Of a DNA stretch of 64,000 nucleotides, positions 7,083 to 27,642 are shown one piece after another. The notes under the pieces are model-generated. The model did no database searches, had not been told where the DNA came from, and was given only the letters and a program-made list of their open reading frames with translations. Within the stretch, counting starts at the first letter, position 1; the number at the start of each line of letters is the position of its first letter. Location of the stretch: assembly GCF_013122565.1 (NCBI RefSeq), contig NZ_CP053258.1, one strand, 5' to 3'. The position numbers and the translations under genes were made by a program. Source of the DNA: Escherichia coli (GTDB lineage: Bacteria > Pseudomonadota > Gammaproteobacteria > Enterobacterales > Enterobacteriaceae).

Positions 7083-9026
7083 ATGATTAAGTTTAGCGCA
7101 ACGCTCCTGGCCACGCTGATTGCCGCCAGTGTGAATGCAGCGACGGTCGATCTGCGTATCATGGAAACCACTGATCTGCATAGCAACATGATGGATTTCG
7201 ATTATTACAAAGACACCGCCACGGAAAAATTCGGACTGGTACGTACGGCAAGCCTGATTAACGATGCCCGCAATGAAGTGAAAAACAGCGTACTGGTCGA
7301 TAACGGCGATTTGATTCAGGGGAGTCCGCTGGCCGATTACATGTCGGCGAAAGGATTAAAAGCAGGTGATATTCACCCGGTCTATAAGGCATTAAATACG
7401 CTGGACTATACCGTCGGCACGCTTGGCAACCATGAGTTTAACTACGGTCTGGATTACCTGAAAAATGCGCTGGCAGGAGCGAAATTTCCTTATGTAAATG
7501 CCAACGTCATTGACGCCAGAACCAAACAGCCAATGTTTACACCGTATTTAATTAAAGATACCGAAGTGGTCGATAAGGACGGAAAAAAACAGACGCTGAA
7601 GATTGGCTATATTGGCGTCGTGCCGCCGCAAATCATGGGCTGGGATAAAGCTAATTTATCCGGGAAAGTGACGGTAAATGATATTACCGAAACCGTGCGC
7701 AAATACGTGCCTGAAATGCGCGAGAAAGGTGCCGATGTTATTGTCGTTCTGGCGCATTCCGGGCTGTCTGCCGATCCGTATAAAGTGATGGCGGAAAACT
7801 CAGTTTATTACCTCAGTGAAATTCCGGGCGTTAACGCCATTATGTTTGGTCATGCTCACGCCGTTTTCCCAGGTAAAGATTTTGCTGATATCGAAGGGGC
7901 TGATATCGCGAAAGGCACGCTGAATGGTGTTCCGGCGGTAATGCCAGGCATGTGGGGCGATCATCTTGGTGTAGTCGACTTACAACTCAGTAATGACAGC
8001 GGTAAATGGCAGGTGACGCAGGCGAAAGCGGAAGCACGACCGATTTACGACATCGCTAATAAAAAATCCCTCGCGGCGGAAGACAGCAAGCTGGTAGAAA
8101 CACTCAAAGCCGATCACGATGCCACACGCCAGTTCGTCAGCAAGCCAATCGGTAAATCTGCCGACAATATGTATAGCTATCTGGCGCTGGTGCAGGACGA
8201 TCCGACCGTGCAGGTGGTGAACAACGCGCAAAAAGCGTATGTCGAGCATTACATTCAGGGCGATCCGGATCTGGCAAAACTGCCGGTGCTTTCAGCTGCC
8301 GCACCGTTTAAAGTTGGTGGTCGCAAAAATGACCCGGCAAGCTATGTGGAAGTGGAAAAAGGCCAGTTGACCTTCCGTAATGCCGCCGATCTTTATCTCT
8401 ATCCCAATACGCTGATTGTGGTGAAAGCCAACGGTAAAGAGGTGAAAGAGTGGCTGGAGTGCTCCGCCGGACAGTTTAACCAGATTGATCCTAACAGCAC
8501 GAAACCACAGTCACTCATCAACTGGGATAGTTTCCGCACCTATAACTTTGATGTGATTGATGGTGTGAATTATCAGATTGATGTTACCCAGCCTGCCCGT
8601 TATGACGGCGAGTGCCAGATGGTTAATGCCAATGCGGAAAGGATTAAGAACCTGACCTTTAATGGCAAGCCGATTGATCCGAACGCCATGTTCCTCGTTG
8701 CCACCAATAACTATCGCGCTTACGGCGGCAAATTTGCTGGTACGGGCGACAGCCATATCGCTTTTGCTTCACCGGATGAGAACCGCTCGGTGCTGGCAGC
8801 TTGGATTGCTGATGAGTCGAAACGTGCGGGGGAAATTCACCCGGCAGCAGATAACAACTGGCGTTTAGCACCGATTGCCGGCGATAAGAAACTGGATATC
8901 CGTTTCGAAACCTCTCCGTCAGATAAAGCCGCAGCGTTTATTAAAGAGAAAGGGCAATATCCGATGAATAAAGTCGCGACCGATGATATCGGGTTTGCGA
9001 TTTATCAGGTGGATTTGAGTAAGTAA
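7083..9026 (+). CDS. cpdB: 2',3'-cyclic-nucleotide 2'-phosphodiesterase / 3'-nucleotidase CpdB
   Basis: 647 aa from [19 protein letters not shown] signal peptide; calcineurin-like metallophosphatase plus 5'-nucleotidase C-terminal region. Confidence 0.93.
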
Positions 9027-14226: not shown

Positions 14227-15630
14227 TTACTTCGCCATGCGTTTTTTACCAATAAACAACCAGCCCAGCCCCAACGCGATAAACCACAGCGGGGTGACCA
14301 GCAGCGCCTGGCGGGTATCATCTTCCAGCGTCAGCAGCACGATCACAAACACAAAGAACGCCATGCATACCCAGCACATCAGCTTGCCGAGCGGCATCTT
14401 GTAGATCGACTTCTCATGCAGATGAGGACGCTGTTTGCGATACACCAGGTACGAGCAAAGGATAATCGTCCAGACGAACATAAACAGAATCGCGGAAACG
14501 GTTGTAATCATCGTGAACGCGCCAATCACGCTAGGATTCACATACAACATCACCACGCCGCCGAGCAGACAGATACACGAGAAGGTCAATCCTTTCGCGG
14601 GTACTGCGCGCTTAGAAAGTTTAGCGAACGCTTTCGGCGCAACACCTTCCTGCGCCAGACCAAACAGCATACGGCTGGTAGAGAAGACACCGCTGTTAGC
14701 GGAAGACGCCGCAGAGGTCAGCACCACAAAGTTGATCACGCTGGCAGCCGCAGGCAAACCTACCAACACAAACAGTTCAACAAACGGGCTTTTCTCCGGG
14801 ACTACCGAACTCCACGGCGTCACGGACATAATCACAATCAGCGCGAAGACGTAGAACATAATGATACGGATCGGAATGGAGTTAATCGCGCGTGGCAGTG
14901 ATTTCTCTGGATCTTTGGTTTCCGCAGCTGTTGTACCTACCAGCTCAATCCCCACGAAAGCGAAAACCGCTATCTGGAATCCGGCAAAGAAGCCACTTAA
15001 ACCTTTCGGGAACCAGCCGCCGTCATTCCACAAATGCGCGAATGACGCTTCCACACCAGTCGGTGACTGAAAGTGCATCGCCACCATGACCAGGCCGACG
15101 ACAATCAGCGACACAATGGCGACGATTTTGATCATCGCAAACCAGAACTCCATCTCACCGAACATTTTCACGGTGGCGAGGTTAAGCGTCAGCAGCAGCA
15201 CTATCACCGCCAGCGAGGCGACCCAGTCGGAGAGATCGGGGAACCAGAACTGAGCATAAGCCGTGATCGCCACCACGTCTGCCATACCGGTTACAACCCA
15301 GCAGAACCAGTAAGTCCAGCCGGTGAAATATCCTGCCCACGGCCCGAGTAAATCGGAAGCGAAGTCACTAAAAGATTTGTATTCCAGATTCGAAAGCAGC
15401 AATTCCCCCATTGCCCGCATCACGAAAAAGAGCATAAAACCAATGATCATATAAACGAAAATGATCGACGGCCCGGCAAGGCTAATCGTTTTGCCAGACC
15501 CCATAAACAACCCCGTACCAATGGCACCGCCAATGGCAATAAGCTGAATATGTCGGTTTGTGAGATTGCGCCGTAGCGACTGTTCAGCCGGAGCCTGATC
15601 ATCGGCAACGACTTTTACCTGATCTACCAT
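14227..15630 (-). CDS. cycA: D-serine/D-alanine/glycine transporter CycA (APC family)
   Basis: 467 aa ORF MVDQVKVVADDQAPAEQSLRRNLTNRHIQLIAIGGAIGTGLFMGSGK... Confidence 0.93.
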   Translation of the reverse strand: MVDQVKVVADDQAPAEQSLRRNLTNRHIQLIAIGGAIGTGLFMGSGKTISLAGPSIIFVYMIIGFMLFFVMRAMGELLLSNLEYKSFSDFASDLLGPWAGYFTGWTYWFCWVVTGMADVVAITAYAQFWFPDLSDWVASLAVIVLLLTLNLATVKMFGEMEFWFAMIKIVAIVSLIVVGLVMVAMHFQSPTGVEASFAHLWNDGGWFPKGLSGFFAGFQIAVFAFVGIELVGTTAAETKDPEKSLPRAINSIPIRIIMFYVFALIVIMSVTPWSSVVPEKSPFVELFVLVGLPAAASVINFVVLTSAASSANSGVFSTSRMLFGLAQEGVAPKAFAKLSKRAVPAKGLTFSCICLLGGVVMLYVNPSVIGAFTMITTVSAILFMFVWTIILCSYLVYRKQRPHLHEKSIYKMPLGKLMCWVCMAFFVFVIVLLTLEDDTRQALLVTPLWFIALGLGWLFIGKKRMAK

Positions 15631-16777: not shown

Positions 16778-17416
16778 ATGCCCGGGCGCTTTGAACTAAA
16801 ACCAACCCTGGAGAAAGTCTGGCACGCGCCGGACAATTTTCGCTTCATGGACCCGCTGCCGCCGATGCATCGTCGGGGGATCATTATTGCCGCCATTGTA
16901 TTGGTGGTCGGATTTCTGCTTCCATCTGATGATACGCCCAACGCGCCGGTGGTGACGCGTGAAGCGCAGTTAGATATTCAGTCGCAATCACAACCGCCGA
17001 CAGAAGAACAGCTGCGGGCGCAATTAGTCACACCACAAAATGATCCTGATCAGGTGGCTCCGGTCGCTCCAGAACCTATACAGGAAGGCCAGCCAGAAGA
17101 ACAGCCGCAAACTACCCAAACGCAACCATTCCAGCCAGATAGCGGAATTGATAATCAATGGCGCTCTTACCGTGTCGAACCCGGTAAAACGATGGCGCAG
17201 CTGTTCCGCGACCACGGACTGCCCGCTACCGATGTCTATGCAATGGCGCAGGTAGAAGGCGCGGGTAAGCCGCTGAGTAATTTGCAAAACGGGCAGATGG
17301 TGAAAATCCGCCAGAACGCCAGCGGCGTGGTGACGGGCTTAACCATTGATACGGGGAATAATCAACAGGTCCTGTTTACCCGTCAGCCGGATGGCAGTTT
17401 TATTCGCGCGCGGTAG
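16778..17416 (+). CDS. ytfB: Cell-division-associated OapA/LysM-domain protein YtfB
   Basis: 212 aa from MPGRFELKPTLEKVW (GGAGCAGGAGG RBS); proline/glutamine-rich linker; synteny after fklB. Confidence 0.88.
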   Translation: MPGRFELKPTLEKVWHAPDNFRFMDPLPPMHRRGIIIAAIVLVVGFLLPSDDTPNAPVVTREAQLDIQSQSQPPTEEQLRAQLVTPQNDPDQVAPVAPEPIQEGQPEEQPQTTQTQPFQPDSGIDNQWRSYRVEPGKTMAQLFRDHGLPATDVYAMAQVEGAGKPLSNLQNGQMVKIRQNASGVVTGLTIDTGNNQQVLFTRQPDGSFIRAR

Positions 17417-17428
17417 ATGAATCAACAT

Positions 17429-18064
17429 TCACATGCATGGGGTCACAAGGAGCCAGCTTAAAAGCGTCTCCTTGATAACCTTATGTCTGTTCTCCAAAGC
17501 CTCAGGAGATATCATACTGATGTGATAAACCAACCCTAAAGTATGTTGGTTAAGAATATAATATCCAGCAAGAGCGGCAAGGCTAATGTTTACCTGTAAT
17601 GGATCTATATCTTGCTTAAAGATATTTTGTTTTTTTCCTTCATCAAGCAACCTTTCCATAATCTCTAAATGCGAGTGGTTAATTTCGGGCAAACGAGTTG
17701 ATTTCTTGTAGTGCTCCCCTCGACTTTGGTTTTCGGAATGAATTATCTTTAAAAACCAAGGATTCTTCACATAATAATCCCACGTAAAATCAATAAATTT
17801 TTCAATGGATTGCAATGGGTTTAGTCCAGTAAAGTCCAGATCTCTTTCTTTTTGCCGGATGTCATTACACGTATATTCAAGGACTTCAATAAACAAATTC
17901 TCTTTATTACCAAAATGATGATAAACAGTCTGCTTACTACAACCGGCTGCTTTAACAATATTATCGACCCTGGCACCTTCATAGCCATACTCTGCAAATT
18001 CATTGATAGCGCACAGTAATAATTTTTCTTTCAAAATTTGCACTTTACTAGTATCAAAATACAT
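17429..18064 (-). CDS. TetR/AcrR-family transcriptional regulator
   Basis: N-terminal TetR HTH ([28 protein letters not shown]); AT-rich; start placed at ATG 18064 with GAGGG RBS (track ORF begins at GTG 18070). Confidence 0.85.
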
Positions 18065-18430
18065 CTTCACCCCTCACACTAATCTTGCCAACCTATTATA
18101 TACTCTTTTACCGCGTGACCACGCACATTTTTCATACAAAAATCATCATTATCTTACAGAGCATTAAACCTACTTACATTGTTTCGTTACTGTGAAACAG
18201 ACAGAAAATTTTTCCTTGATGCATATTTGTTAAAAATGGAATATGGCTTTAATTAATTATATTCATATAATGAATATTTAACTATAAATAATTAATTCCA
18301 TTTATTTTCAAAGAGTTATAATTTTAAATATGATCTCCCTCACGAATCAACCAACTAGATGGTTGGTTCAAATAAAATCTATAGGCATCTTTGTCTCCAT
18401 GATGAATCCTGTATTTAAAGAGGTCCAAAA

Positions 18431-19222
18431 ATGAAATCAAAAAAACCCGTTGCTATTATTACCGGTGCTGCCCGTGGTATCGGTAAAGGTTGTGCTATTG
18501 AACTAGCTCGCGCTGGATTTAATCTTCTAATAAATGATCGACCAGATAAAGACAGCATCGAAAAACTTAAAGCAACTCAAAAACTATGTATCGCTGAAGG
18601 TGTTGAAGTCATAACGTTTCCAGCCAACATTGGCGATTTAACGTTACATGAAAAGATGCTCGACGCGGCGCAAAATCAGTGGGAGCGTTTGGACTGCCTG
18701 CTCAATAACGCCGGAATTTCGGTGAAAAAGCGTGGTGATATTCTCGACCTGGAGCCAGACAGTTTCGACGATAACATTGCCATCAATACCCGCGCACCTT
18801 TCTTCCTCGCCCAGGCTTTCAGCAAGCGCCTGTTGGCGCAACCCAAACCAGAAGCTGAACTACCGCATCGCTCAATTATTTTTGTCAGCTCAATTAACGC
18901 CATCATGCTGGCGATGAATCGAGGTGAGTACACCATTGCCAAAACAGCTGTATCTGCCGCTGCCCGCCTGTTTGCCGCACGTCTTTGTGAAGAGCAAATT
19001 GGCGTTTATGAAATCCGCCCAGGTTTAATCAAAACCGATATGACTATTCCAGCAACAGCTTATTACGACGAACTGATCGCTAAGGGGTTAGTGCCATGGG
19101 GTCGTTGGGGTTTTCCACAGGACATCGCCTCCACTGTCCGTGCAATGGCGGAAGGCAAACTGATTTACACCTGTGGTCAGGCGGTCGCCATCGACGGCGG
19201 CTTAAGTATGCCACGCTTCTGA
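18431..19222 (+). CDS. Short-chain dehydrogenase/reductase (SDR) family oxidoreductase
   Basis: TGAARGIGKG nucleotide-binding motif, NNAG, catalytic Y-x3-K (YTIAK). Confidence 0.88.
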   Translation: MKSKKPVAIITGAARGIGKGCAIELARAGFNLLINDRPDKDSIEKLKATQKLCIAEGVEVITFPANIGDLTLHEKMLDAAQNQWERLDCLLNNAGISVKKRGDILDLEPDSFDDNIAINTRAPFFLAQAFSKRLLAQPKPEAELPHRSIIFVSSINAIMLAMNRGEYTIAKTAVSAAARLFAARLCEEQIGVYEIRPGLIKTDMTIPATAYYDELIAKGLVPWGRWGFPQDIASTVRAMAEGKLIYTCGQAVAIDGGLSMPRF

Positions 19223-19231
19223 GGCTGAACC

Positions 19232-20074
19232 ATGAGAGATCTGTTACATCGCCCGGATTTATTCAGCATCAATACCGCGACGCTGGGCTATAAAATGCCT
19301 CTGCCCGCCCTTATTGATGCTTGTGCCGCACGCGGCATCGGTGCGATTGCCCCCTGGCGCAGAGAGTTGCAGAGCGAAGATCTTCAGCAAATCGTCCGCC
19401 AGCTTGCCGCCAATAACATGAGCGTTTCTGGTTTATGCCGTAGCACCTACTACACCGCGCCGACGCTGGCAGAGCGCAAGCTGGCGATTGATGATAACCG
19501 CCGGGCGCTGGACGACGCAGCGATGCTGAACGCCGCCTGTTATATGCAGGTGGTTGGCGGTCTGCCAACGGGCACTAAAGATCTGTATGAAGCGCGGGAG
19601 CAAGTGAAAGAAGGGGTTCGCCAGTTGCTGTCACATTCGAAAGATGTCGGCGTGCCGATTGCACTGGAGCCACTGCACCCGATGACTGCTGCCGATCGCT
19701 CTTGCCTCTGCTCGCTACGTCAGGCGCTGGACTGGTGTGATGAACTCGATCCCGATGGTGAGTTTGGCCTCGGCGTGGCGGTCGATGTCTACCACGTCTG
19801 GTGGGATCCGGATCTCACCAGTCAGATCCTGCGCGCTGGAAAACGGATCCTCGCGTTTCATGTTTCCGACTGGCTGGTGCCGACGACCGATCTGGTCAAT
19901 GATCGGGGAATGCCGGGAGATGGCGTCATCAATATTCCGTCAATTCGTCGGCTGGTTGAAAACGCCGGATTTAATGGTTCTATCGAATTAGAAATATTTT
20001 CTTCATTCTGGTGGGAAAAGAATATCAACCAAATACTGGATAAAAGTATTAACGGACTTTCTTATTATTGTTAA
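19232..20074 (+). CDS. Sugar phosphate isomerase/epimerase-like TIM-barrel protein (xylose isomerase-like fold)
   Basis: 280 aa; family assignment by overall pattern only; 9 bp after SDR stop. Confidence 0.6.
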   Translation: MRDLLHRPDLFSINTATLGYKMPLPALIDACAARGIGAIAPWRRELQSEDLQQIVRQLAANNMSVSGLCRSTYYTAPTLAERKLAIDDNRRALDDAAMLNAACYMQVVGGLPTGTKDLYEAREQVKEGVRQLLSHSKDVGVPIALEPLHPMTAADRSCLCSLRQALDWCDELDPDGEFGLGVAVDVYHVWWDPDLTSQILRAGKRILAFHVSDWLVPTTDLVNDRGMPGDGVINIPSIRRLVENAGFNGSIELEIFSSFWWEKNINQILDKSINGLSYYC

Positions 20075-20223
20075 ACATCACACTATATTTTTCTCTCGAA
20101 ATTAGTTGATTGTTTAAATTTGCATGTTTTAGAAAGTTATGAGTGAAGTAATAAATCAATAAATTAAATATCTTACAGAGCATTGCGAGTGTTAGGTATT
20201 TATAATCAAATAGGGATTGGCAT

Positions 20224-21765
20224 ATGAGCAAGATTAATACTGCAGAAATACTGGTCGCAGGTATTAAAGATGGCGCAACAATCGCCATTAGCGGTAATGG
20301 CGGTGGAATGGTTGAAGCCGATCATCTACTACAAGCTCTGGAAACACGGTTTCTGGAAACCGGGCATCCATGTAACCTTACGCTTATACACTCATTAGGT
20401 GTAGGAGACCGTGAACACAAAGGCAGTAACCGTTTTGCTCATAAAGGAATGTTAAAGCGTGTTATTGCAGGACATTTCACATGGTCACCAAGAATGCAGG
20501 CTCTGGTTAAGAATAATGAGGTCGAGGCTTATTGCTTTCCTAGCGGAGTTATTCAGACATTATTACGTGAAATAGGCGCTGGACGTCCAGGACTGTTCAC
20601 CCATGTCGGGGTAGGAACTTTTATTGATCCGCGTAATGGAGGAGGGAAATCTAATTCACGAACGACAGAGGATCTGGTAGAGCTAATTGAAATTGATGGA
20701 GAAACAAAGCTACGCTATCGCCCATTTAAAGTTGATTACGCAATTGTGCGCGGTACTTATGCGGATTCACGCGGTAATATTAGCCTGGAAGAAGAAGCCG
20801 TCGATCTGGATTGCAATTCTATAGCTCTAGCTGCCCATAATAGCGGTGGTAAAGTCTTTGTGCAGGTACGTGACATTCTTGAAACAGGTGCGATTGAACC
20901 CAGACGAGTAAAAATACCCGGAATCTTAGTCGATGGCGTCGTGGAATATAGAGATCAACAACAAACATATCTTGGTGGTTACGATCTTACTATCAGCGGC
21001 CAGCATCGTCGTCTTTGTTCTCAAAACTCTATTGAACTGGTTTCAAACCCAATACGTCGATTAATTGCACGCCGTGCAGCACGCGAGTTAGTTGCTGGCG
21101 CATCCACAAACTTTGGCTTTGGCATGCCAGGAGGGATCCCAGGTATTGCTCTGCGTGAAGGAGTCCCTTTTGATACCCTTTGGCTCAGCGTGGAACAAGG
21201 TGTGCATAATGGCATGATGCTGGATGATGCTCTGTTTGGCTGTGCTCGCAATGCTGATGCGATAATTCCTTCTCTTGAGCAGTTTGATTTTTATAGTGGT
21301 GGTGGTGCCGATATAACTTTTCTCGGTATGGGGGAAATGGATCAGTATGGAAACGTGAATGTTTCCCATCTCAACAATAACCTTATCGGACCAGGCGGTT
21401 TTATCGAAATTGCACAGAATGCCCATAAAGTGGTGTTCTGCGGCACGTTTGATGCCAAGGGTAGCAAAATAAACGTCACAAATGCGGGCCTGGAAATCAT
21501 TCAATCCGGCCAGGTAGCAAAACTTGTTTCACAAGTAGAAGAGATAACTTTCAGCGGAGAATATGCGCAACAACGTAAACAGGATGTGTTGTACATTACC
21601 GAGCGCGCTGTATTCCAGTTAACGCCACAGGGTGTGGAACTAATTGAGGTTGCCCCTGGCGTGGACATTGACCACGACATTCTGCCGTATATGGCCTTCC
21701 GTCCAATTATCAAGCACCCACGCCTGATGGAAAGTAGTCTGTTTACGCCGATGGAGGATGCATGA
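20224..21765 (+). CDS. Acyl-CoA:acetate/3-ketoacid CoA-transferase, fused alpha-beta (YdiF-like, family I)
   Basis: 513 aa; clear colinear similarity to E. coli YdiF as recalled (GHFTWSPR, GVGTFIDPRNGGGK, FDFYSGGGADITFLGMGEMDQYGNVNVS, ITERAVF). Confidence 0.85.
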   Translation: MSKINTAEILVAGIKDGATIAISGNGGGMVEADHLLQALETRFLETGHPCNLTLIHSLGVGDREHKGSNRFAHKGMLKRVIAGHFTWSPRMQALVKNNEVEAYCFPSGVIQTLLREIGAGRPGLFTHVGVGTFIDPRNGGGKSNSRTTEDLVELIEIDGETKLRYRPFKVDYAIVRGTYADSRGNISLEEEAVDLDCNSIALAAHNSGGKVFVQVRDILETGAIEPRRVKIPGILVDGVVEYRDQQQTYLGGYDLTISGQHRRLCSQNSIELVSNPIRRLIARRAARELVAGASTNFGFGMPGGIPGIALREGVPFDTLWLSVEQGVHNGMMLDDALFGCARNADAIIPSLEQFDFYSGGGADITFLGMGEMDQYGNVNVSHLNNNLIGPGGFIEIAQNAHKVVFCGTFDAKGSKINVTNAGLEIIQSGQVAKLVSQVEEITFSGEYAQQRKQDVLYITERAVFQLTPQGVELIEVAPGVDIDHDILPYMAFRPIIKHPRLMESSLFTPMEDA

Positions 21766-23834
21766 GTCAGCTTGATGACACCATCCTTGATGCGCTGACA
21801 CACGTCACTTTCCCAAAGGGGTTTGTGTCAGCAGAGCCAACACCAATTGTCACCGTTGAGGATGTTGATTACCCGATCTGGCACGTTGATGCGCTGGTCG
21901 TTGGTAGCGGCGCAGCAGGATTACGTGCGGCAGTTGAACTTAAACGCCGCCAGCAAAATGTGCTGATCGCTACCGCCGGGTTATATATGGGGACGTCGGC
22001 ATGTTCTGGTTCCGATAAACAGACACTGTTTACCGCCGCTACCGCGGGCAACGGCGACAACTTCACCAAACTGGCAGAGGCACTGGCGAGCGGTGGGGCG
22101 ATGGATCACGACACCGCTTATGTCGAAGCGGTAGGTTCTCTGCACACTCTAGGCGGGTTGCAATATCTTGGTCTGGAATTACCGGAAGATCGCTATGGCG
22201 CGATTCTTCGTTATCAAACCGACCATGACGAAGCTGGGCGTGCAACCTCGTGTGGGCCGCGTACCTCAAGGTTAATGGTGAAAGTGCTGTTGGAAGAAGT
22301 ACAGCGCCTCGCCATTCCAGTGTTGACCAGTGCAACAGTGATTAAACTGCTGCATCAGCGTGACGAAAACGGCGAAGACCGCGTGGCAGGGGCAATCCTC
22401 GCGACCGGTCATCGCGCCCATAACCCATGGGGGCTGGCAATTGTGACTGCGCCCAATGTGGTACTGGCAACGGGCGGACCGGGCGAGCTTTATCGCGACA
22501 GTGTTTATCCACATAAATGCTTCGGCTCGCTGGGGCTGGCGCTGGAGGAAGGTCTGACGCTAACCAATCTGACCGAAAGCCAGTTTGGTATAGGCACACC
22601 GCGCAGCACGTTTCCGTGGAATTTGTCCGGCACCTATGTGCAGGTGATCCCGTATATCTATTCCGTGGATGCTGAGGGTAACGAGTATAACTTCCTCGCG
22701 GATTACTATCGCACCACCCAAGAGCTGGCTTCAAACATCTTCCGTAAAGGCTATCAGTGGCCGTTCCACGCCACGCGGGTAATGGATTTTGGCTCCAGCT
22801 TGTTAGATATGGCGGTGGCGCAAGAACAGCAACATGGTCGTCTGGTGTTTATGGATTTCAATCGTAATCCTGAAGCGGTGCCTGGTGATCTACCCTTCTC
22901 ATTAGATCGACTGGACGACGACGTTCGCGCGTATCTGGAAAATAACGACGCTCTGGCACCATCGCCCATCGAACGGCTGCAACGAATGAATCCGCTGTCT
23001 ATCTCGCTGTATAAGATGCACGGTTACGATCTCACCACGCAGCCATTGCAGTTTGCCATGAATAATCAGCACATGAATGGCGGCATTGAAGTGGATATCT
23101 GGGGACAAACATCCCTGCCCGGTTGTTTTGCAGTGGGAGAAGTAGCCGGTACTCACGGCGTTACCCGACCTGGCGGCGCGGCGCTGAATGCCGGACAGGT
23201 TTTTGCCGTGCGTCTGGCGCGCTTTATTGGTTGCACACAAAAGCGGTCTGTTGAGGAGGATGTCGCGCAGCTGGTAGCCTCATCTCTGCATATAGTCAGA
23301 GAAGTTATCGCTCAGGCACTGGCAAACGAGAACGGAATGGCGCTGGTAACGGTGAAAGAAAAAATCCAGGCGCGAATGTCTGATTACGCTGGATTTATTT
23401 GTCATGCCGATAAAGTTCGTCACGCCACCCGTGACGCCCTGCTGTTAAGTGAGTTTGTACAACAACACGGTTTGACCATCAAACATGTTGGCGAAATTGC
23501 CGAACTATTTATGTGGCGGCATATGGCACTGACTTCTGCCGCCATATTGACACAATTGACGCATTATATTGACGCAGGTGGCGGCAGTCGTGGGGCGCGG
23601 ATAATTATTGATCACTATGGGGAAGGTCTACCACAAACTCGACAGGGTGCAAAAGAAAAATGGCGTTTTAGATTGGAGTCTGAAAATGAAAGAGAATCAC
23701 GAGCAACGATTCAGCTTAACAATGGAGAATTTATAATAAATAAAAACAAGATACGTCAAATAATCAATTTCAAAAATAATTATTTTGAAAAAAATTGGCC
23801 GGAGTTTCTCCTTGGAGAAATCTATATAAAATAA
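21762..23834 (+). CDS. FAD-dependent oxidoreductase (fumarate reductase/succinate dehydrogenase flavoprotein-like), with unusual AT-rich C-terminal extension
   Basis: N-terminal dinucleotide-binding motif VVGSGAAGLRAA; 690 aa; ATGA start/stop overlap with upstream CoA-transferase. Confidence 0.8.
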   Translation: MSQLDDTILDALTHVTFPKGFVSAEPTPIVTVEDVDYPIWHVDALVVGSGAAGLRAAVELKRRQQNVLIATAGLYMGTSACSGSDKQTLFTAATAGNGDNFTKLAEALASGGAMDHDTAYVEAVGSLHTLGGLQYLGLELPEDRYGAILRYQTDHDEAGRATSCGPRTSRLMVKVLLEEVQRLAIPVLTSATVIKLLHQRDENGEDRVAGAILATGHRAHNPWGLAIVTAPNVVLATGGPGELYRDSVYPHKCFGSLGLALEEGLTLTNLTESQFGIGTPRSTFPWNLSGTYVQVIPYIYSVDAEGNEYNFLADYYRTTQELASNIFRKGYQWPFHATRVMDFGSSLLDMAVAQEQQHGRLVFMDFNRNPEAVPGDLPFSLDRLDDDVRAYLENNDALAPSPIERLQRMNPLSISLYKMHGYDLTTQPLQFAMNNQHMNGGIEVDIWGQTSLPGCFAVGEVAGTHGVTRPGGAALNAGQVFAVRLARFIGCTQKRSVEEDVAQLVASSLHIVREVIAQALANENGMALVTVKEKIQARMSDYAGFICHADKVRHATRDALLLSEFVQQHGLTIKHVGEIAELFMWRHMALTSAAILTQLTHYIDAGGGSRGARIIIDHYGEGLPQTRQGAKEKWRFRLESENERESRATIQLNNGEFIINKNKIRQIINFKNNYFEKNWPEFLLGEIYIK

Positions 23835-23937
23835 ACGCCTTTTAAATCGGTAGCTATTAAATAAATATTTTATGATTTGCAAAATTCACGCTTTTACATT
23901 GTGAGTATTTTCTATTGATAATATCAAAGGTTTAATC

Positions 23938-25218
23938 ATGAAAAAAATCAAGCACTATAGGTGGCATATTATCGTCTTAATATGTTTCATCACTGTAATT
24001 AATTATTTGGACAGAACAGCATTAGGCGTGGCCGCGCCCACAATAATGCAAACGATGGGGATAACTAAAGAGCAATATTCATGGGTTGTCAGTGCATTCC
24101 AGTTAGCATATACAATTGGACAACCTGTAATGGGATTCTTTATTGACCTTATCGGTCTGAAATTTAGCTTTTTCATTTGCATTATAATCTGGGGACTTGC
24201 CACTATGGGGCACGCATTAGCGGGATCCTGGCAAGGTTTGGCCTTTATGCGTGGCCTGATGGGAGTAAGTGAAGCCTCCGTCTTTCCCGCAGGGATAAAG
24301 ACTGTATCGACGTGGTTTCCTGCTAAAGAACGCGGTATTGCTGCGGGATTCTTCAACACGGGTACATCTCTTGGTGCCATGCTTGCTCCACCGCTTATTG
24401 CCTGGTGCATAATGTTCCATAGTTGGCAATTCGCATTTCTGGTTTCTGGCTGTCTGGCATTATTTGCGGCAGTGATGTGGTTTATCTTTTATAAAGACCC
24501 CAAAGATGCCAAAGGACTTTCTGAAGAGGAAAGACACTATATAGAGTCTGGGCAAGAAAAACATCTTGATTCTAATAAAAGTAAAAAAGCAACCATTCTT
24601 CATGTTATTAAAAAACGCAATTTCTGGGGTATTGGCATTACCCGTTTCCTGGCAGAACCAGCTTGGGGAACAATCAACTTTTGGGTACCTATATTTTTCG
24701 TTGAAACATTGCATTTCAGCTTAAAAGATATAGCAATGTTTATCTGGCTCCCGTTTTTATTAGGTGACTTGGGTTGTTTATCTAGTGGTTTTATCGCTAA
24801 GTTTTTTCACGATCGCGGGGTTAGCCTTCTTAATGCACGAAGAATTACATTTACATTCGCTGCAACAACGATGATGTCGATTGGTTTGGTTAGCATCGTC
24901 ACTAATCCGTACATTGCTGTATTACTAATTAGTATCGGTGCATTCTCACATCAATGCCTATCTACTGTTGTTGCCACTATGGGGGCCGATCTTTTTGAAA
25001 AAGAAGAAGTCGCAACAGTAGTTGGATTATCGGGAGGGTGTGGATATACAGGGCAACTGATATTTAATATATTCATTGGTGTATTCGTTGCTGCAATTGG
25101 CTTCTCGACATTCTTTGTGATACTTGCCTTCCTGGATATTATTGGTGCCATTATTTTATGGTCTGTAATTAGACCACCGAAACTTGTTGAACAAACAAAT
25201 TTAGTAACACAATCGTAG
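23938..25218 (+). CDS. MFS transporter, anion:cation symporter (ACS)-like, probable organic-acid permease
   Basis: 426 aa, 12-TM pattern, N-terminal YLDRTALGVAAP motif. Confidence 0.85.
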   Translation: MKKIKHYRWHIIVLICFITVINYLDRTALGVAAPTIMQTMGITKEQYSWVVSAFQLAYTIGQPVMGFFIDLIGLKFSFFICIIIWGLATMGHALAGSWQGLAFMRGLMGVSEASVFPAGIKTVSTWFPAKERGIAAGFFNTGTSLGAMLAPPLIAWCIMFHSWQFAFLVSGCLALFAAVMWFIFYKDPKDAKGLSEEERHYIESGQEKHLDSNKSKKATILHVIKKRNFWGIGITRFLAEPAWGTINFWVPIFFVETLHFSLKDIAMFIWLPFLLGDLGCLSSGFIAKFFHDRGVSLLNARRITFTFAATTMMSIGLVSIVTNPYIAVLLISIGAFSHQCLSTVVATMGADLFEKEEVATVVGLSGGCGYTGQLIFNIFIGVFVAAIGFSTFFVILAFLDIIGAIILWSVIRPPKLVEQTNLVTQS

Positions 25219-25269
25219 TTTTTATTTTTACCTATAGAATTTTAATCGAAAAAAAATAAAGGAAAGATT

Positions 25270-25749
25270 ATGTCTCAAACAGAAATTATTCTTCCTTCAG
25301 GAAGAGAACTTACTCCAGGTGAATATGGTTATGCCAATCTGGAACCTGGCGATCACTACCAGACTCCCGGTCTTAACGTAACAGAGTCACAGATTGTTGC
25401 TTTTGCGGGGATAAGCGGTGATTTTTTCGATGTTCATATGGATGATGAATTTGCAAGGGAAAAAGGATTTCCAGGACGCATTGCCCACGGTCTGTTAGGT
25501 TTAGCATTGACGGACGGCCTGAAGAATCGTTCTATTGTACGTTTACGTGCAGTTGCTACATTAAACTGGAACTGGTCATTCTGTGCACCATTATTGCCTG
25601 GAGATCATATTCACGCCGTTATTACTGTTGTTAAAAAACGCCCCACCAAACGTGAAGACCGAGGCATTGTGACTTTTGCTTTACAATTGTTTAATCAACA
25701 TGGAAAGATAATACAGCGAGGCGAAACTCTGCTGATGATGATGCAATAA
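25270..25749 (+). CDS. MaoC-like (hot-dog fold) dehydratase / enoyl-CoA hydratase
   Basis: 159 aa; GRIAHGLLGLALTDGL hot-dog motif; AGGAAA RBS. Confidence 0.8.
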   Translation: MSQTEIILPSGRELTPGEYGYANLEPGDHYQTPGLNVTESQIVAFAGISGDFFDVHMDDEFAREKGFPGRIAHGLLGLALTDGLKNRSIVRLRAVATLNWNWSFCAPLLPGDHIHAVITVVKKRPTKREDRGIVTFALQLFNQHGKIIQRGETLLMMMQ

Positions 25750-25760
25750 TCTGAGTTTGA

Positions 25761-25797
25761 AATACGTACCAACGAGTATGCTGGTACGTATTTCTTC
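25761..25797. terminator. Intrinsic terminator between convergent catabolic operon and HipA-like gene
   Basis: 10-bp perfect stem aatacgtacc/ggtacgtatt, 12-nt loop, followed by tttcttc. Confidence 0.65.
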
Positions 25798-25868
25798 GCA
25801 AACGCACTGTTTATGCTCTCTCCCTCATAATGACTGTTTCATCTAACTAATATTTCTAAATAACTGTC

Positions 25869-27137
25869 CTAAATTGACGACCTGAATGCCTCTGCCATTA
25901 ACTCTTGCTCACGATCAGGTAATCTAAGACGCTCGGCAATAGTTTGCCACTGACTGACAATCCCTCTAAAATTAGCAATAATGTCATCAGCTTCCGTCAA
26001 ACTAAGTCGAAAATACTCTGCAACTTCTCTAGCTAATTCCAAATCAAGTGCATTATCATTTTCCGTAATATTAAGCTTTAAACCGTCAGATCTGGAAACA
26101 GGATTCAAATCATATGCTTCAGAAAGCCGCCAACCTTTTCCCGGTATCAAGATATATCCATGATTACGTAAATGATCATCGGTATTAGAAACAAGAATAT
26201 TAAAAACAATTCTGGACCAGAGTTCTTTAAGGTCAGTATTGGTCTGCGCTCCGTGCCTGATAAGAACATCTGCTAATTCCAGATAACTTACACCTGTAGA
26301 GGCATCTTCACCATCCTGATGTCTGGTTAGTGTCATAGCCGAAGCAAAATGCAGACGCCTTCCCGCATTAGTGCGGTCAAAACGACGAACCATAAAACAA
26401 TGGTAATTGCTGGCAAATTTATGCGCCTGAGCAGGTGCAACATTCAGTCCACAGCCAACAGCAAGCGCATTAACGACCATTTCCCATCCACCAACATCAT
26501 ACTCATCTTTTGCACTGGGAAATTTAGCGATGTAAAGATGTCCGGCTTCATCAACCACACTGGCTTTTGGACGTGCACCCCCTAATGATCCCCCCGGAGC
26601 GATTAGCATTCTTAACCATTTTTGCCCCATGAGTTCTTTATTATCAGGATCTTCTTCAATTGCCCGGCTAGCCCTTTCCAGACTCGCTATTTCGGTAAAT
26701 GGTGGGGCTGCAACATTAATGCGGTTATCAAGAAACTCTCCAGCGTCTTCACGTTTGTATCGAAGAGCCCCAACCCGATAAAGATCATGAACACCTAATA
26801 GATAGTCAGACTCATAAAGGTGGGAGTCTTTATCAAATAACCCATCTCGAATATCCCTCTCAAAACGACGCTTCATTAGCATACGCCCCCAACGATCCGG
26901 GCAGGAATCACTAAACGCACCAAATTTATCCTTTGGAGGAATTGGGTACTGTGCTCCCTCATACAACATTATTTCAGGATCTAACTGAATGAAATTAAGT
27001 GCACGATCTGCAAGCGCCTTTTTATCGTACTCAAACTCAAATATCTCACGCGCCCGAGTGCGACGACTGTGTAAATAACCAATACGCGCAGGACCATCCA
27101 GGCCTTCCCAATCCGCATACACTCCGATTAATGCCAT
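25869..27137 (-). CDS. HipA-family serine/threonine kinase (type II toxin-like)
   Basis: 422 aa; P-loop-like GGSLGGARPK and catalytic NTDDHLRNHG motifs in HipA order; AAGGA RBS. Confidence 0.8.
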   Translation of the reverse strand: MALIGVYADWEGLDGPARIGYLHSRRTRAREIFEFEYDKKALADRALNFIQLDPEIMLYEGAQYPIPPKDKFGAFSDSCPDRWGRMLMKRRFERDIRDGLFDKDSHLYESDYLLGVHDLYRVGALRYKREDAGEFLDNRINVAAPPFTEIASLERASRAIEEDPDNKELMGQKWLRMLIAPGGSLGGARPKASVVDEAGHLYIAKFPSAKDEYDVGGWEMVVNALAVGCGLNVAPAQAHKFASNYHCFMVRRFDRTNAGRRLHFASAMTLTRHQDGEDASTGVSYLELADVLIRHGAQTNTDLKELWSRIVFNILVSNTDDHLRNHGYILIPGKGWRLSEAYDLNPVSRSDGLKLNITENDNALDLELAREVAEYFRLSLTEADDIIANFRGIVSQWQTIAERLRLPDREQELMAEAFRSSI

Positions 27138-27150
27138 AATTAATTTCCTT

Positions 27151-27642
27151 TTATCGGTTTTTTATCGGTTTTTTTATCGGTTGTAATAGTGCAGCAAGAG
27201 AGGTTGACGTTTCCCCTGGAATAGTTGGCGTTGAGTCTTTTGCCAGTGCTGTTAAATCCGTGGTGAGATGACCTTCTTTCTCGCGTTTCGTCTGAAATGA
27301 GGCTGTCTGAATCCCTTCTTCATTCTTAACTGATGAACGAGAAAGCCCTCTTTTTTTAATCAAACGGGAATCCTGGAGCTGATGCCCTAAGGCGTCTTCA
27401 GCTGCAAGCTTATTTAAATCCGTTTCCAGGCCCAAAACCTGCATCACAGACAAATATGCCCCTATCGTGACCCCTGCACTTCCTGCCTCCAGAGAACGCA
27501 ATGTGATTGGCGACATCCCTGCACGCTCAGCAACTTGCTTTGCGGTTAGCTTACGTCGTAAACGAGCAAGTTTCAGACGCTCACCAAATTCACTAAGCAT
27601 CTGATTCGTATAAGGGAGTAACGGTGCTGTTTTTTTACCCAT
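27151..27642 (-). CDS. XRE-family HTH protein (HipB-like putative antitoxin) with long low-complexity C-terminal tail
   Basis: 163 aa; HTH ~residues 16-75 ([23 protein letters not shown]); 13 bp upstream of kinase gene on same strand. Confidence 0.75.

Follow-up and report, generated by a model that had tools for sequence, protein, structure and literature searches.

The gap between the divergently transcribed tetR and SDR genes of the window (the whole 64-kb stretch of DNA that was analysed) is an ordinary divergent control region, with a TetR-family regulator and CRP, of a widespread enterobacterial island. The reading that we prefer, and consider probable, is that the repressor would recognize a conserved palindrome at positions 18346-18368, which abuts a CRP box and would hold the -35 hexamer of the operon promoter, and that the AT-rich palindrome at 18261-18275, put forward as the operator in a first-pass annotation, would be part of a neutral spacer. 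What is new here is a previously unreported, predicted operator for an unstudied TetR-family protein (YtfA). The literature on the regulator, the operon and the operator contained nothing functional beyond a table of CRP ChIP-seq targets and a census of TetR proteins that lists ytfA, and no mention of the operator sequence turned up in the literature that could be searched. The regulator and the CoA-dependent pathway have gone unstudied because K-12 keeps only a ytfA pseudogene.

The tetR gene (17429-18064, minus strand) is the intact ortholog of this E. coli K-12 pseudogene, and the ortholog in E. coli H10407, ETEC_4558, has been named a ytfA homologue (PMC4287617). Its product carries the Pfam domains TetR_N (the N-terminal TetR helix-turn-helix, PF00440, at 2.3e-14) and TetR_C_29 (the C-terminal ligand domain, PF17938, at 6.7e-30). 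The alignment with homologs, which begins with MY, places the start codon at ATG 18064 rather than at GTG 18070, and the gap therefore runs from 18065 to 18430 and measures 366 bp, slightly more than the 360 bp given before. The AT-richness for which the gap had been singled out was borne out: its GC content is 29.5% (18% in the core), compared to some 50-55% in the flanking core genes cycA, fklB and ytfB. Downstream, the regulated operon (18431-25749, plus strand), delimited on the basis of domain content and of synteny across the fetched loci, starts with the SDR gene (18431-19222) and continues with genes for a xylose-isomerase-like TIM barrel, a fused CoA transferase, an FrdA-like flavoprotein of 690 amino acids, an ACS-type MFS transporter and a MaoC-like hydratase. 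No equivalog-level name was available in NCBIfam for the TetR protein, the TIM barrel, the CoA transferase or the flavoprotein, and the NCBIfam scores of the TetR protein fall under every equivalog cut-off.

The island is located between ytfB and rplI, next to a cycA-fklB-ytfB flank that is 98.8% identical to that of E. coli HS. The allele in the window has matches, at 92% identity, in 9 of 5426 complete E. coli genomes, and a second allele, the short-gap form with a gap of 212 bp and a TRAP transporter, was present in 3129 of them; in K-12-type strains only a tetR fragment remains. The island also occurs in other Enterobacteriaceae, though S. Typhimurium LT2 presumably lacks it. For comparison, orthologous tetR/SDR loci were fetched from E. 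coli (several alleles), E. albertii, E. whittamii, Entomohabitans, Salmonella, Lelliottia, Leminorella, Klebsiella spallanzanii and metagenomes, with TetR identities down to 52%. We used 18 loci for the context of the operator and the CRP box, ten for the promoter scan and the distance to the SDR start codon, and eight orthologs for the k-mer comparison. The divergent order of tetR and the genes for the SDR, the TIM barrel, an enoyl-CoA hydratase (ECH), the CoA transferase, the flavoprotein and the transporter was kept in nine fetched loci from several genera and several genomic neighbourhoods. The enoyl-CoA hydratase gene is absent from the operon in the window and present in all other orthologs of which the operon was recovered (the nine fetched loci and ETEC H10407). 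Its place is taken by an AT-rich spacer of 149 bp at 20075-20223 (compare positions 14685-15461 of the fetched locus L001), beside which the 3' end of the TIM-barrel gene has also diverged (identity 0.57-0.62), and the MaoC-like hydratase encoded after the MFS gene (25270-25749) might stand in for the absent enzyme. Between the island and rplI, the minus strand encodes a HipA-like kinase (422 aa) and, upstream of it, an HTH_31 protein (163 aa) (25869-27642), which together look like a hipBA-type toxin-antitoxin pair.

The invariant element of the 18 compared loci is the palindrome ATCAACCAACT-AGATGGTTGGT, located 85 bp downstream of the AT-rich palindrome. The window version, ATCAACCAACT-AGATGGTTGGTT at 18346-18368, can be described as inverted repeats with 13-nt arms (18344-18369) or as perfect AACCAAC/GTTGGTT arms. 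Across the orthologs the arms (AACCAAC and GGTTG(G/A)T) are unchanged and the central 4-5 bp differ (TAGAT, CAGAT, TATTT, CGATC and CGAAT), as expected for the site of a dimeric helix-turn-helix protein. The 10- to 16-mers of the gap that are common to all eight orthologs (with at most two mismatches) map only to 18345-18367. Around this element the orthologs align without gaps in a conserved block. The mean frequency of the top base was 0.91 in the operator block versus 0.53-0.64 in the non-conserved flanking blocks, and a second conserved block (GCAT.tT, 18385-18393), which overlies the proposed -10 hexamer of the operon, reached 0.79. When the ortholog consensus was searched in the 64-kb window with up to three mismatches, a single match was obtained (0 expected), and no further copies were found at that threshold, for instance before the CoA-transferase or MFS genes. 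Each of the 18 loci, including those in different genomic neighbourhoods, has one copy of the element in an equivalent upstream position, and in the ten loci measured it lies 82-97 bp before the SDR start codon; these counts are not independent since the orthologs share descent. The exception in copy number is a metagenome contig (L009, 4210-4416; TetR 52% identical), on which two operators, AACCAACCGATCGGTTGATC and the perfect palindrome AAACCAACC-GAAT-GGTTGGTTT, precede the SDR gene at a distance of 46 bp from each other. On the basis of this conservation, the element at 18346-18368 is most likely the binding site of the TetR protein.

We also scanned 100,044 species genomes for exact matches to the 20-mer CAACCAACYAGATGGTTGRT, for which about two chance loci were estimated. 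The scan returned 13 loci, six of them the enterobacterial orthologs. Three of the seven others, from Amycolatopsis, Gordonia and an Actinomycetes MAG (L021 1872-1891, L023 741-760 and L013 10594-10613), have a TetR-family ORF nearby, the distances being 8, 83 and 539 bp, and for the remaining four no TetR gene was present in the flanking DNA examined. The actinobacterial ORFs have a similar helix-turn-helix domain and different C-terminal domains (TetR_C_21, TetR_C_11). A second, similar half-palindrome was seen close to the 20-mer in both L023 and L013. The association of these actinobacterial 20-mers with TetR genes provides independent, circumstantial backing for the palindrome as a TetR-type site.

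The predicted operator is preceded by a CRP box, TATGA-TCTCCC-TCACG (TATGATCTCCCTCACG, 18329-18344, plus strand), that matches 8 of the 10 core positions of TGTGA-N6-TCACA. In 17 of the 18 loci, a box with 8-10 matches precedes the operator by 3-4 bp; in the remaining locus, L027, the left half of the box has been lost altogether. Haycocks et al. 2015 (PMC4287617) list the box of H10407, TGTGATCACTATCGCA, located between ETEC_4557 and ETEC_4558 (ytfA), among the targets of CRP in ChIP-seq. Within the H10407 locus the 16-mer occurs a single time, and we found it at the orthologous position (L025 9094-9109, corresponding to NC_017633.1 4941093-4941108), 190 bp from the published peak coordinate (4940903, PMC4287617). 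In vivo occupancy by CRP has been shown for the orthologous box in H10407 (PMC4287617), of which the box in the window is a degenerate variant with TATGA as its left half. Because of this degeneracy, and because the left half is gone in L027, CRP control may be weakened in the sub-clade to which the window belongs.

For the operon we propose a promoter with a -35 hexamer TTGGTT (18363-18368, plus strand; TTGATC in most orthologs) in the right arm of the operator and, 17 bp further, a -10 hexamer CATCTT (18386-18391, plus strand) in the conserved GCAT(C/T)TT block. TTGATC-17-CATCTT was the only sigma-70 arrangement that a simple weight-matrix scan found in the same register in all ten orthologs scored, with CATCTT itself being a weak hexamer. 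Transcription is predicted to start at about 18398, which would put the centre of the CRP box (18336.5) at around -61.5. CRP geometries of class II (-41.5) and of -71.5 were considered and rejected: by eye, no -10-like hexamer occurs at the needed register in the orthologs, and both registers are absent among the best-scoring sigma-70 positions. Two strong, lineage-specific -10-like hexamers, TATAAT (18317-18322) and TATGAT (18329-18334), are located further upstream on the plus strand (18317-18334) and reach 8-10 bits in the window and in E. coli MSI001 only. They are stronger than CATCTT and could be the real promoter, and the operator would then lie at about +5 to +40 relative to the start; from its position, the predicted operator is placed to repress the operon from either promoter. 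For tetR, a candidate -10 hexamer (TATAAT, 18095-18100, minus strand) is found 36 bp upstream of the ATG, proposed from its match to the consensus. In nine of the ten orthologs scanned, one of the three best arrangements likewise places a -10-like hexamer (TATAAT, TAAGAT, TATGAT or TATAGT) at a distance of 33-44 bp before the tetR start codon; in L005, a TATGAT was seen by eye only. No copy of the operator was found near the tetR promoter.

Taken together, the gap (18065-18430) would serve as the divergent control region of a catabolic island that was acquired horizontally, and a TetR repressor of the YtfA type would govern this island. The repressor would bind at 18346-18368, and not at the AT-rich palindrome (18261-18275). 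Since the predicted operator contains the -35 hexamer of the promoter common to the ten scored orthologs and adjoins the CRP box at 18329-18344, bound repressor would block both RNA polymerase and class I activation by CRP from about -61.5. Release of the repressor would be brought about by an effector, and the content of the operon, together with the nearest characterised relatives of the regulator (the acyl-CoA-binding FadR and KstR2), suggests that this is probably a CoA thioester or the organic acid that is transported. The tetR gene would use its own promoter, some 250 bp away (-10 at 18095-18100), with no operator over it. The AT-rich stretch of about 170 bp in between would be a lineage-specific neutral spacer with at most a non-specific role, for instance as a substrate of H-NS.

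In the first-pass annotation, the candidate operator of TetR between divergent promoters was instead ATTCAT-ATA-ATGAAT (18261-18275), together with the AATTAATT symmetry around it. The palindrome is real, its coordinates and letters were correct, it is located between both genes and it extends to perfect arms of 8 bp (ATATTCAT-ATA-ATGAATAT, 18259-18277). The larger symmetry (AATTAATTAT at 18251-18260 and ATAATTAATT at 18288-18297) could be confirmed as well, there are outer flanking repeats (AAATGGAAT at 18234-18242 and ATTCCATTT at 18295-18303), and in the window sequence alone the nested symmetry is somewhat above chance. However, the palindrome by itself is at chance level. The palindrome scan that had been suggested as a check yields an equal inverted repeat (perfect arms of at least 6, spacer of at most 10) in 82% of the sequences obtained by dinucleotide shuffling of the gap, so that 18261-18275 is not distinctive; arms of at least 8 occur in 13% of the shuffles, and for the anchored ungapped palindrome score P is 0.09 when the whole gap is the background and 0.21 when the AT-rich core is. 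Moreover, the closest relatives are E. coli MSI001 and L026, a metagenome contig, with TetR proteins that are 97% identical to that of the window; in both the site reads ATTCACATGATAAAT, with 3 of the 15 bases changed such that the symmetry is abolished, and the flanking repeats are likewise broken; in L027 (TetR 90% identical) unrelated sequence is found in its place. The 80 bp around the palindrome (18236-18315) are 0.675 identical to MSI001, close to the identity of third codon positions in the SDR gene (0.686; 0.715 in the TIM-barrel gene), which indicates that the segment evolves at about the neutral rate, whereas 18316-18430 is 0.905 identical. The whole segment is also missing from the short gaps of orthologs in which the TetR helix-turn-helix is nearly identical. 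Given this neutral divergence and this absence, the palindrome appears to lie in dispensable DNA, and a far better conserved palindrome is available 85 bp away. We therefore give almost no credence to 18261-18275 as the operator; what stands of the earlier proposal is the divergent control region of a TetR protein with a conserved palindrome in it. A further inverted repeat in the gap, TGTTTC-N8-GAAACA (18180-18199), was discarded as it is not conserved in MSI001.

The AT-rich spacer around the palindrome (about 18139-18304, some 170 bp, with ends that are approximate) was delimited from the lengths and sequences of the orthologous gaps. It is common to the closest sub-clade only, and it is absent from seven orthologous loci with gaps of 204-233 bp (Salmonella, Leminorella, Lelliottia, the common E. 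coli type and others). The spacer, including the nested quasi-palindrome of 70 bp that it contains (18234-18303, specific to the lineage of the window), might serve as a platform for nucleoid proteins such as H-NS or StpA that silences or insulates both promoters of the island; composition and curvature would then determine binding, and the palindrome would not be recognized specifically. H-NS prefers AT-rich acquired DNA, and the established preference fits with the GC content of the core and of the gap (18% and 29.5%, against about 50% in the flanking core genes) and with the horizontal acquisition and variable presence of the island (9 of 5426 genomes for the window type), features by which H-NS-silenced acquired DNA is recognized. 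In addition, L027, a member of the related sub-clade, has a long AT-rich gap of a different sequence, which suggests that composition and not sequence has been retained. On the other hand, the corresponding point of the gap in Entomohabitans teleogrylli is occupied by a GC-rich insert of about 230 bp (L002 about 8650-8900) that is unrelated to the spacer, and most orthologs lack the spacer entirely, which makes it dispensable for regulation of the operon. We consider such a role of nucleoid proteins a tentative possibility, and it is compatible with TetR binding at 18346-18368. Far less plausible is that the quasi-palindrome is a structural element in itself, for instance a hairpin or cruciform, a small RNA or a terminator, or what is left of a small mobile element. 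The 18%-GC core has three inverted repeats with arms of at least 8 versus 0.89 expected (P=0.055), so that the wider nested symmetry modestly exceeds chance, the single strand at 18228-18309 folds at -10.8 kcal/mol (z=-2.9, none of 200 shuffles being as stable), and similar stretches, ATTTTTCATA and ATTTTCAAA, occur on either side of the spacer. However, the homologous segment of MSI001 does not fold (z=+1.2) and shows none of the symmetry and no compensatory pattern, no Rfam family matched anywhere in 17000-26000 with an E value up to 1, and no credible small ORF is present in the gap. Among the 5426 E. coli genomes the orthologous locus was the sole match to the spacer, and neither terminal inverted repeats nor similarity between its ends were seen, so that we also rejected the spacer as a MITE or other repeated mobile element. 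We further regard two separate conjectures as improbable: that the quasi-palindrome was created recently and is functional (e.g. as a template-switch cruciform or as an H-NS nucleation structure that insulates or silences both promoters), and that AACCAAC-N4-6-GTTGGTT defines one recognition class for TetR helix-turn-helix domains that range from Enterobacteria to Actinobacteria and are joined to unrelated ligand domains. If the former were true, the quasi-palindrome might insulate or silence the two divergent promoters.

The divergence of the window from MSI001 is uneven. Third codon positions are 88.7% identical in tetR versus 68.6-71.5% in the SDR and TIM-barrel genes, and the difference between 17429-18235 and 18236-20074 suggests a recombination breakpoint within the gap, near 18200-18236. 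An exact direct repeat of 16 nt, TATCTTACAGAGCATT, connects the tetR/SDR gap (18150-18165) with the AT-rich spacer that replaces the hydratase gene (20169-20184); the flanks of the two copies are dissimilar, and this was the sole match of the spacer elsewhere in the window. This repeat may be a trace of the rearrangement in which the enoyl-CoA hydratase gene was deleted.

For the reading that we prefer, with TetR binding at 18346-18368, the practical consequence is that the predicted operator, the CRP box and the likely promoter offer an experimental handle for finding the inducer, and hence the substrate of the pathway. With respect to method, short AT-rich palindromes are to be expected by chance in DNA of 18-30% GC, and phylogenetic footprinting chose another site.

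The predicted arrangement can be compared with several known systems. As in TetR-tetA, QacR-qacA and AcrR-acrAB, a regulator with a TetR_N domain is encoded divergently from its target operon, a palindromic operator of 20-26 bp is predicted over the target promoter, and a small ligand would be expected to act as the inducer. The difference is that the operator is found at the operon promoter only, at a distance from the tetR promoter of about 250 bp in the window and about 60-100 bp in the short orthologs, and direct autoregulation is for that reason not evident. The nearest relatives of the regulator with a solved structure include 3vpr, 5gp9, 3whb and 4w97 (E 1e-5 to 1e-11), next to uncharacterised TetR proteins, and FadR of Bacillus and Thermus and KstR2 of Mycobacterium, which respond to acyl-CoA and regulate pathways resembling beta-oxidation, are among these nearest relatives by sequence. 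The operon in the window likewise encodes CoA transferase, hydratase, dehydrogenase and flavoprotein steps, the C-terminal domain of its regulator being TetR_C_29, and the half-site AACCAAC is not known to resemble the FadR or KstR2 boxes. Finally, the predicted operon promoter would follow the pattern of class I CRP promoters of the lac P1 type, with a CRP box at about -61.5 from the predicted start, a weak core promoter and a specific repressor site next to or over that core promoter. It would differ from these in that the CRP box in the window is degenerate (8 of 10 positions), and in that the repressor site would lie between the CRP box and the -10 hexamer and cover the -35 hexamer, whereas lacO1 is located downstream of the start.
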